Source: a virus | Taxonomy: Duplodnaviria; Heunggongvirae; Uroviricota; Caudoviricetes | Length of the DNA stretch: 46,314 bases | IMG/VR virus record: IMGVR_UViG_2909303794_000006 | Strand: one strand, 5' to 3' | In this document: one piece after another, positions 2,926 through 3,195 of the stretch | Layout: every line of letters starts with the position of its first letter | How positions within the stretch are numbered: the stretch's first letter is position 1 | Notes under the pieces: generated by a model | The model's input: the letters and a program-made list of their open reading frames with translations, nothing else | Told to the model about the DNA's origin: nothing | The model's database searches: none | Position numbers and translations under genes: made by a program

Positions 2926-3195
2926 TTACTTCATCCAGCCAATATTTTCCCACGTCCCGTCAGCACGCAGGATTTGCAGCGGTCTTACCACGCACTGTAT
3001 CTGCTTTTTATCTGCATCCAGTATCACCACCTGCGTGATTACCCTGTCCTGCTCCGGAATAATACCATTCTCATCGGACTCCAGGATGTCTGCCGGCCCC
3101 AGACGCAGTTGTGCTGTAAGCGACTGCACGTGTTCACGGCCATCATGCTTTCCGCAACCACACAGACGCTGCATAAGTTTTTTTAGTATATTCAT
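2926..3195 (-). CDS. small protein (89 aa) paralogous to the C-terminal domain of the upstream tail fibre; possible fibre chaperone/assembly factor or alternative distal module
   Basis: ATG 1 nt after stf stop, AGGAGA about 6 nt upstream; shares motif RLGPAxIxExxxNGxxPxxD...DGxW with stf C-terminus. Confidence 0.55.
   Translation of the reverse strand: MNILKKLMQRLCGCGKHDGREHVQSLTAQLRLGPADILESDENGIIPEQDRVITQVVILDADKKQIQCVVRPLQILRADGTWENIGWMK

Follow-up and report, generated by a model that had tools for sequence, protein, structure and literature searches.

The closest described counterparts of the locus considered here are the collagen-like phage fibres EPclA and EPclB, prophage side tail fibres of enterohaemorrhagic E. 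coli whose C-terminal domain, PfC, was characterized by Ghosh et al. (2012; PMC3368898). Both the isolated PfC of EPclA (7 kDa) and Trx-PfC form trimers; PfC is a mostly non-helical module, and the fast refolding of Col-PfC after melting implies that it nucleates the collagen triple helix. Full rEPclA from BL21(DE3) is a proper trimer with a folded collagen helix and a 7-nm C-terminal knob, and rEPclB produced alone aggregates. The same work does not mention a small gene that lies directly downstream of such fibre genes, and it is this gene that we analyzed, in a 46,314-nucleotide stretch of DNA from a virus of the Caudoviricetes (IMG/VR record IMGVR_UViG_2909303794_000006; hereafter the window). 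Here it encodes an 89-residue protein (MNILKKLMQRLCGCGKHDGREHVQSLTAQLRLGPADILESDENGIIPEQDRVITQVVILDADKKQIQCVVRPLQILRADGTWENIGWMK) that is a paralogue of the PfC knob of Stf, the fibre encoded immediately upstream. An earlier note on this DNA, made from its letters alone, had proposed this relationship and offered three readings of the gene: a detached chaperone-like module, an alternative fibre tip, or the leftover of a recombination.

Judged by its architecture, namely a PfN domain at residues 1-133 (phage_tail_N), an Ala/Glu-rich coiled coil, a collagen region at about 251-361 and a PfC domain at 363-426, the fibre of the window appears to be the EPclA of Ghosh et al. (2012; PMC3368898). The two genes and the signals at their junction are as follows.

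3197-4510, minus strand: stf, collagen-like side tail fibre of the EPclA type, 437 amino acids (aa)
3233-3424, minus strand: PfC knob of Stf, residues 363-426, PF06820, paralogue of the small protein
2926-3195, minus strand: the small gene, a phrog_576 knob-only PfC paralogue, 89 codons and a TAA stop
3112-3195, minus strand: N-terminal extension of the small protein, 28 residues, with a predicted helix at residues 3-11, a CGCG motif and a variable linker
2929-3114, minus strand: PfC domain of the small protein, PF06820, residues 28-89
3202-3205, minus strand: Shine-Dalgarno sequence GGAG of the small gene, 6 nt ahead of its ATG and within the last stf codons
3197-3199, minus strand: stf stop TGA, followed by one C and then the small-gene ATG at 3193-3195
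3232-3234, minus strand: alternative in-frame ATG, 13 codons upstream, used by some annotators

The similarity between the small protein and the Stf knob is far beyond chance. In a single BLASTP comparison, residues 29-85 of the small protein align with Stf 364-422 with 23 of 59 positions identical (39%) and 37 positive (E=3e-12), and both proteins match the Pfam family PF06820 (Phage_fiber_C; gathering cut-off 25 bits) over all 64 profile positions, the small protein with residues 28-89 (118.3 bits, E=1.9e-34) and Stf with residues 363-426 (123 bits, E=6e-36). The pairwise and profile alignments that the earlier note had called for thus bear out its claim of paralogy, and the motif series that it listed corresponds to the invariant columns of the knob, which in small-protein numbering are R31, P34, A35, I37, G44, P47, L59, D60, D79, G80 and W82. 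The small protein also matches the 89-position profile of phrog_576 ('tail fiber protein') from end to end, residues 1-89 on positions 1-89 (E=3.2e-59). It is devoid of both the PfN tail-attachment domain and the collagen part of the fibre, and its 28-residue extension has no fibre counterpart, except possibly the last collagen triplets of Stf. At E<=1, a Pfam scan of the small protein returned PF06820 as the sole family, with neither Caudo_TAP nor Peptidase_S74, and a scan against NCBIfam gave no match. A role in anti-phage defence was rejected, as the PADLOC defence models matched with no family at E<=1. A lipoprotein or secretion signal was likewise rejected from the sequence, the hydrophobic run ahead of C12/C14 being only about five residues long and flanked by charges; the lipobox reading is weakened further by a C14Y substitution, present in approximately 10% of the modules.

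The minus-strand junction of the two genes (GGAGAATGAcATG) confirms that the small-gene ATG lies one nucleotide past the stf stop behind a good Shine-Dalgarno sequence: the genes are joined without overlap as TGA-C-ATG, and the start is spaced as GGAG-N6-ATG. With this arrangement the small gene is well positioned for its translation to be coupled to that of stf. Use of the alternative ATG at 3232-3234 would give a 102-aa product overlapping stf; however, it is the ATG at 3193-3195 that is preceded by the better Shine-Dalgarno sequence and that the record of lambda h434 imm21 uses. Most named public entries of the protein are 89 aa long, and no peptide from the 13-codon upstream extension is present among the listed proteome peptides of phage phi24B, which are considered below. 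Across related loci the small-gene frame stays open upstream over a variable length of 13-46 codons. The order J - lom - stf - small gene further establishes that the gene occupies the slot in which lambda carries tfa.

As a sequence, the small gene is already known: the exact 89-aa product is public (e.g. AUK17364.1 from E. coli O157:H7), and the paralogy is implied by the current annotation name, 'phage tail fiber C-terminal domain-containing protein', together with PF06820 and phrog_576. We found no paper that discusses the gene; by locus tag, a single array study was recovered (PMC4940412, considered below), and a search with the EDL933 locus tags returned almost only noise. Among 5426 complete E. 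coli genomes it is present in 697, with a median of 11 copies and 6804 copies in all, and the fibre knob is found in 696, with a median of 10 copies and a total of 6154, the same genomes holding both. A further approximately 300 phage records, mostly of Shiga toxin (Stx) phages, contain the small gene. Beyond these the family is narrow. A word-indexed search of 5.8 billion proteins recovered 177 relatives, each of at most 131 aa and almost all from E. coli, E. albertii, Shigella or C. rodentium; an exhaustive hidden Markov model search of 1.84 billion representative proteins gave 80 matches, nearly all of them fragments or chimeras of the E. coli family; and a scan of one genome per species yielded E. 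albertii and two likely contaminants. With so few distant relatives, the family is too narrow for co-variation analysis or a deep phylogeny.

Within this range, the association with the fibre is tight. In 80 viral loci found via the small protein the gene ahead of it is always an EPclA-type fibre gene, and 77 of 79 related loci preserve the junction GGAGA[A/G]TGACATG. Conversely, among 77 usable loci found via the fibre knob, an intact 89-codon gene begins one nucleotide past the fibre stop in 71 (about 92%), the six exceptions comprising two frameshifts and four insertions of insertion sequences (IS). The earlier note had held that its proposal would fall if the open reading frame (ORF) were absent or frameshifted in close relatives with functional fibres; the gene is intact behind most fibre genes. 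Taken as mean pairwise values over 51 distinct small-gene alleles, the ratio of nonsynonymous to synonymous substitution rates (dN/dS) is 0.11 for the whole gene, 0.079 for its PfC part and 0.30 for the N-terminal 28 codons, as against 0.28 for the fibre's own knob; the variable sites of the small gene fall on the three codon positions as 9/12/22, an excess at the third. Furthermore, identity between the two knobs is just 39%, whereas it exceeds 90% among the copies of either one, which points to an old split after which the small copy was retained. Rather than a relic, the small gene is thus a true late gene that lambdoid (Stx-type) phages have conserved.

Protein-level evidence comes from the virions of phi24B (bioRxiv 10.64898/2026.04.10.717836). 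According to that cryo-EM and proteomics preprint, gp61 is the lateral fibre with a small C-terminal globular domain, the small protein corresponds to gp59 (ORF 39891-40295), and the sample had been stored for six months. The virion proteome in its supplement contains two peptides specific to the small protein, ADGTWENIGGMK and VITQVVILDADKK, with three spectra each, and the equivalent fibre-knob peptides GLDEVGSDTGR and FGDGPWQDVK, with 47 and 38 spectra. On these supplementary data, the small protein is produced, and purified virions contain traces of it, at roughly 1/13 of the fibre chain by spectral count, which is a rough figure only. The abundance of the C-terminal knob peptides also shows that the fibre keeps its own knob in these virions. 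The database that the authors searched included hypothetical gp61-gp59 frameshift fusions (under the label 'Spike or just gp59?'); no gp61-gp59 junction peptide appears among the peptides listed, and gp59 goes without mention in the main text.

The origin of the small gene is recorded in part at the DNA level. When the two knob-coding stretches are aligned, 14 of 14 nucleotides are identical at the RLGPA motif, and the end of the small gene, GGC TGG ATG AAG TAA, is a frameshifted copy of stf GGGCTGGATGAAGTG (13/13 nt). This second island, GGCTGGATGAAGT, is read as G-W-M-K-stop in the small gene and as (K)G-L-D-E-V in stf, and the small protein accordingly ends without the last approximately 15 residues of the fibre (KGLDEVGSDTGRTGE). 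Since the gene ends in frameshifted fibre DNA, we infer that it probably derives from a copied fibre 3' end. Codon 87 (within 2929-2937) differs between alleles: the window encodes GWMK and most relatives GGMK, the Trp allele being present in about 4% of modules. As it is the Trp allele that makes the last 13 nt match GGCTGGATGAAGT, it could reflect gene conversion between the paralogues.

The only clearly distant PF06820 member among the 1.84 billion representative proteins, P0233 (L089 3505-5202; Logan SRR17035117 contig), is a 565-aa fibre-like protein from a metagenomic phage contig, in which four tandem PfC-like modules of about 80 aa, with short Gly-X-Y stretches between them, are followed by a collagen region and then an unrelated C-terminal domain; no knob-only gene lies beside it. 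It matches the small-type knob with E 2e-7 and the fibre knob with E 4e-4, and being at least as close to the former it argues that the small copy is not the degenerate one of the pair. The small copy may have originated in some other fibre and not in the resident stf. Across related loci (L003-L169), amino-acid variants of the two knobs, although encoded just a few hundred bases apart, are associated with a maximum r2 of 0.20, and all four combinations occur at 104 of 144 site pairs; this near-absence of linkage disequilibrium points to very intense recombination among the approximately 11 prophage copies per genome. Several ORFs (P0174, P0065, P0067, P0089, P0026 and P0002) join the small gene or the fibre knob to the other paralogue or to pieces of collagen, J, Lom, CII or tape-measure genes, and these reflect either genuine deletions between prophage copies or chimeric assembly. 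None of the candidate natural fusions withstood inspection: P0065 (collagen plus small knob) is uninformative, as it lies at a contig edge, L005 and L007 carry 1-nt indels within the fibre knob and are pseudogenes or sequencing errors, and in L021 and L056 an IS66-family element is inserted at the junction.

Based on the above, we tentatively propose that the small protein is a sub-stoichiometric accessory or assembly factor of the fibre, acting via knob-knob contacts from the slot of lambda Tfa, a reading to which we give a little less than an even chance. Given that PfC trimerises by itself, the small protein probably does so too or engages in contacts of the PfC type, and it would either form a trimer of its own or enter transient mixed contacts with fibre chains. 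Acting on the fibre knob inside the infected cell, it might cap or template the knob, which would keep fibres in register as they fold and prevent knob-mediated sticking between them. In function it would thereby match lambda Tfa, with no homology to it, and it would not be a stoichiometric part of the virion. The greater conservation of the small knob relative to the fibre knob (dN/dS 0.079 versus 0.28) fits a housekeeping helper better than a fast-evolving adhesin, and we also count in favour of this proposal the paralogy itself, the linkage to the fibre (77/79 and 71/77), the purifying selection, the recurrence of the module with its terminator in lambda h434 imm21 and VT2-Sakai, the late, antiterminated expression, the phi24B peptides and the label 'tail fiber assembly chaperone' that the gene bears in the record of lambda h434 imm21. 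Of the earlier note's three readings, the detached chaperone-like module seems the most plausible direction, although only in a weakened form, because rEPclA trimerises in BL21(DE3) without the small protein, which therefore is no obligatory trimerisation chaperone.

Several observations weigh against an accessory role. Without the small protein, rEPclA in BL21(DE3) not only trimerises but also folds its collagen helix and refolds after melting (PMC3368898). The two knobs show no allele-specific pairing at the sites compared (maximum r2 0.20; 104/144 site pairs). The virion trace could be carry-over of a late cytoplasmic protein, or else the remains of a loose tip lost in storage, and the contact between the small protein and Stf is itself putative. 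In a related formulation the protein would represent a separate type of fibre accessory, a trans-acting copy of the trimerisation domain by which the knob of collagen-like fibres is capped, templated or extended, serving either as a 'homologous chaperone' against knob-mediated aggregation or as a non-covalently stacked second knob that forms the real distal tip, and replacing the unrelated Tfa of other lambdoid phages; this we regard as less likely than not.

Five other explanations deserve consideration, and are taken here in descending order of our estimate: a stacked tip, a soluble role, a remnant, a frameshift fusion and a cassette. A trimer of the small protein might remain on the virion, stacked end-on on the fibre knob as a cap or as the real receptor-binding tip, in the manner of gp38 on T2 gp37 or of Tfa on the Mu fibre. 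The peptides listed from gradient-purified phi24B virions are in keeping with this, as are the tandem modules of P0233, which indicate that a single fibre axis can accommodate several knobs of this family in a row, and the six-month storage of the phi24B sample could have shed a loosely bound tip. Nevertheless, we consider it unlikely, given that the fibre-knob peptides have about 13-fold more spectra in the supplement than the equivalent peptides of the small protein, that the small knob evolves more slowly than the fibre knob (0.079 versus 0.28), the opposite of the usual receptor-binding tip, and that its alleles do not pair with those of the fibre knob. Alternatively, the knob could act away from assembly, as a free trimer that is released at lysis and masks the fibre receptor on debris or neighbouring cells, or in some role in the lysogen. 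Such a protein would be expected to look much as this one does, with the putative receptor-facing domain of the fibre present and the PfN tail-attachment domain absent, and in the phi24B supplement it appears mostly to lie outside virions. Moreover, two Sakai genes, ECs0845 and ECs2940, are up approximately 5-fold in spinach root exudate in uninduced cells (PMC4940412); from their numbering beside ECs0844 and ECs2941, they are probably copies of the small gene. However, the array data cover about 11 near-identical copies and may merely reflect prophage induction, the sequence contains neither a signal peptide nor an acceptable lipobox, which would confine any action to the time after lysis, the coding strand shows no promoter-like site for the gene, and no PADLOC family matches; we accordingly judge a soluble role improbable.

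That the gene is a functionless remnant of a duplication or tip-swapping recombination, hitch-hiking with stf, gains some credence from its frameshifted 3' end, from the identity islands of 14/14 and 13/13 nt, from the database chimeras between the paralogues and with J, Lom and CII, and from the intense recombination in the region. Against this stand a dN/dS of 0.11 with a third-position excess, the preservation of about 92% of the copies intact even though the two knobs are just 39% identical and neighbouring prophage genes are IS-riddled, the retention of the Shine-Dalgarno sequence and ATG, the detection of the protein in the phi24B supplement, and a similarity to P0233 at least equal to that of the fibre knob (E 2e-7 versus 4e-4). 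Thus, 'leftover of recombination' may well describe how the gene arose, as the 13/13-nt frameshifted copy suggests, but its survival as a dead remnant is contradicted by the dN/dS, the 71 of 77 intact copies and the phi24B peptides, and is very improbable. A programmed +1 frameshift at the stf stop (GAA UGA C), which would produce a Stf-small fusion as a minor fibre species with two tandem knobs, has an even slimmer chance. The small ORF does lie in the +1 frame of stf, the UGA-C stop with a Shine-Dalgarno-like GGAG just upstream is loosely reminiscent of prfB, tandem knobs occur in P0233, and the search database described in the phi24B material shows that its authors looked for such fusions. 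Yet in prfB the Shine-Dalgarno-like element lies 3 nt upstream of the P-site codon, whereas here GGAG overlaps that codon; the P-site codon GAA cannot re-pair in the +1 frame (AAU); the canonical Shine-Dalgarno-ATG arrangement accounts for the junction; the open stretch upstream in the small-ORF frame varies (13-46 codons); and the phi24B peptides listed include none across the junction. Close to refuted is the idea of a silent alternative-tip cassette, by which the fibre would swap its knob through recombination as in Mu or P1, but by deletion. The 14-nt identity island at RLGPA would offer a site for it, and the database chimeras P0065 (collagen plus small knob) and P0174 resemble its products; P0065, however, lies at a contig edge, and the predicted stf/small recombinant junction has no exact match in 2.9 million viral contigs. 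None of the 177 relatives from the 5.8 billion proteins exceeds 131 aa with a small-type knob, which is weak evidence as full-length fibres were also missed for the fibre knob. The two copies stand in direct orientation, inverted repeats are short and scattered with none flanking the pair, and a cassette would have no need of its own conserved Shine-Dalgarno-ATG and N-terminal extension. Hence the earlier note's 'alternative fibre tip' is not supported, given the missing junction, the missing flanking inverted repeats and, more weakly, the lack of a long small-knob protein.

The wider locus is of lambda type. J (5329-8808) and lom (4662-5261) precede stf and the small gene, with lambda-type I, tape-measure and terminase genes further upstream. 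Tfa was not seen in the stretches examined, for which no dedicated scan was made. The features that frame the stf-small pair are listed here.

4529-4558, minus strand: strong intrinsic terminator between lom and stf, 13-bp stem and T run
2143-2910, plus strand: IS1, 768 bp, between the small-gene stop and the late-operon terminator
2109-2130, minus strand: intrinsic terminator of the late operon (CCGGAG-tctgg-CTCCGG and T run)

The lom-stf terminator is likewise present in lambda h434 imm21, and its presence, combined with the lack of a promoter-like site on the coding strand of the pair, indicates that stf and the small gene are expressed only by antiterminated late read-through, with the small gene as the last cistron of the late operon. 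In phages 2851, phi330, lambda h434 imm21 and VT2-Sakai, a hairpin CCGGAG-N-CTCCGG with a T run (delta-G -19.8 kcal/mol) directly follows the small-gene stop. In the window, the gene is cut off from this terminator by an element inserted 15 bp past the stop, which we take to be IS1 from its length, terminal repeats and ORFs (InsA and InsB at 2198-2473 and 2392-2895, plus strand); its 9-bp target duplication, AGCTTCACA, is found at 2134-2142 and 2911-2919, and the match to phage 2851 begins at window position 2911.

The stf-small arrangement is also found in the long-tailed phages 2851 and phi330 and in the plaque-forming laboratory hybrid lambda h434 imm21 (OM418627), and the small gene also stands behind the 645-aa EPclB fibre of the short-tailed VT2-Sakai; the fibre 3' end, the small gene and the terminator thus travel as one module between siphovirus- and podovirus-type phages. 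In phi330 (L002 4287-5599), a plaque-forming phage of enterohaemorrhagic E. coli (EHEC), stf is annotated in two pieces and is apparently frameshifted, with the small gene intact; its side fibre seems dispensable for plaques on the laboratory host, as with lambda PaPa. Just past the late-operon terminator of the window, at 1396-2085 (minus strand), lies a gene for an NleG-family type III effector (PF06416, E=3.8e-44), in what is the usual 'effector cargo' position, where relatives have OspB-like or NleB/NleC/NleH genes. The left edge (1-1274, minus strand) is occupied by an IS3-family transposase pair, presumably resembling IS2; at 30042-31843 (plus strand) a 340-aa rve/HTH transposase precedes a 260-aa ORF, and 38399-39286 (plus strand) holds a further IS3-family transposase, all within or beside the prophage. 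The prophage is thus IS-riddled and may be defective.

Collagen-like side fibres are present in most lambdoid prophages of EHEC, those of Stx phages included, and probably affect which strains these phages reach; the small gene accompanies such fibre genes at about 11 copies per EHEC genome. Were its product an assembly aid or a tip, it would be part of the host-recognition apparatus of Stx phages and a simple case in which the duplicate of a structural domain works in trans for the protein it came from, and it could possibly aid the production of recombinant collagen-like fibres that are prone to aggregation. Were it without phenotype, the gene would merely be a conserved passenger. Either outcome could be established at little cost, as both genes are intact in the plaque-forming lambda h434 imm21.

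Comparison with known systems places the locus apart from each of them. The invertible tips of Mu, P1 and e14 (Gin/Cin/Pin) similarly encode two versions of a fibre C-terminus side by side; here, in contrast, the copies are in direct orientation without inversion sites, the small gene has its own translation signals and no fused versions were found. No serine invertase was noted beside the pair in the ORF list (IS elements, the NleG effector, lom and J), on which no profile scan was made. The gp38 protein on the gp37 tip of T2/T4 is likewise a small protein encoded beside the fibre gene, with a potential position at the distal tip. However, gp38 is unrelated to gp37's own tip, and in T2 it is stoichiometric and fast-evolving, whereas the small protein has no homology to gp38, is conserved and, in the one available proteome, is sub-stoichiometric. 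As in endosialidase tailspikes and T5 pb1 (Peptidase_S74), a C-terminal module is proposed to drive trimerisation or registration, but the S74 intramolecular chaperones belong to the fibre polypeptide and are released by self-cleavage, while the small gene is a separate ORF with its own Shine-Dalgarno-ATG and no S74 match, and the fibre knob is retained in virions according to the phi24B supplement. Lambda Tfa, Mu U and P2 G (Caudo_TAP) offer a parallel in position, a small gene that comes right after stf and closes the late operon, and some Tfa proteins remain on the fibre tip. The small protein bears no sequence relationship to them and is a paralogue of the fibre, which Tfa proteins are not; further, the EPclA fibre trimerises without it, and rEPclB alone aggregates (PMC3368898). 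It is with the PfC of EPclA and EPclB themselves that the small protein shares its domain family, through a full-length PF06820 match, and from which it differs in being a separate 89-aa polypeptide with its own start and a 28-residue extension.

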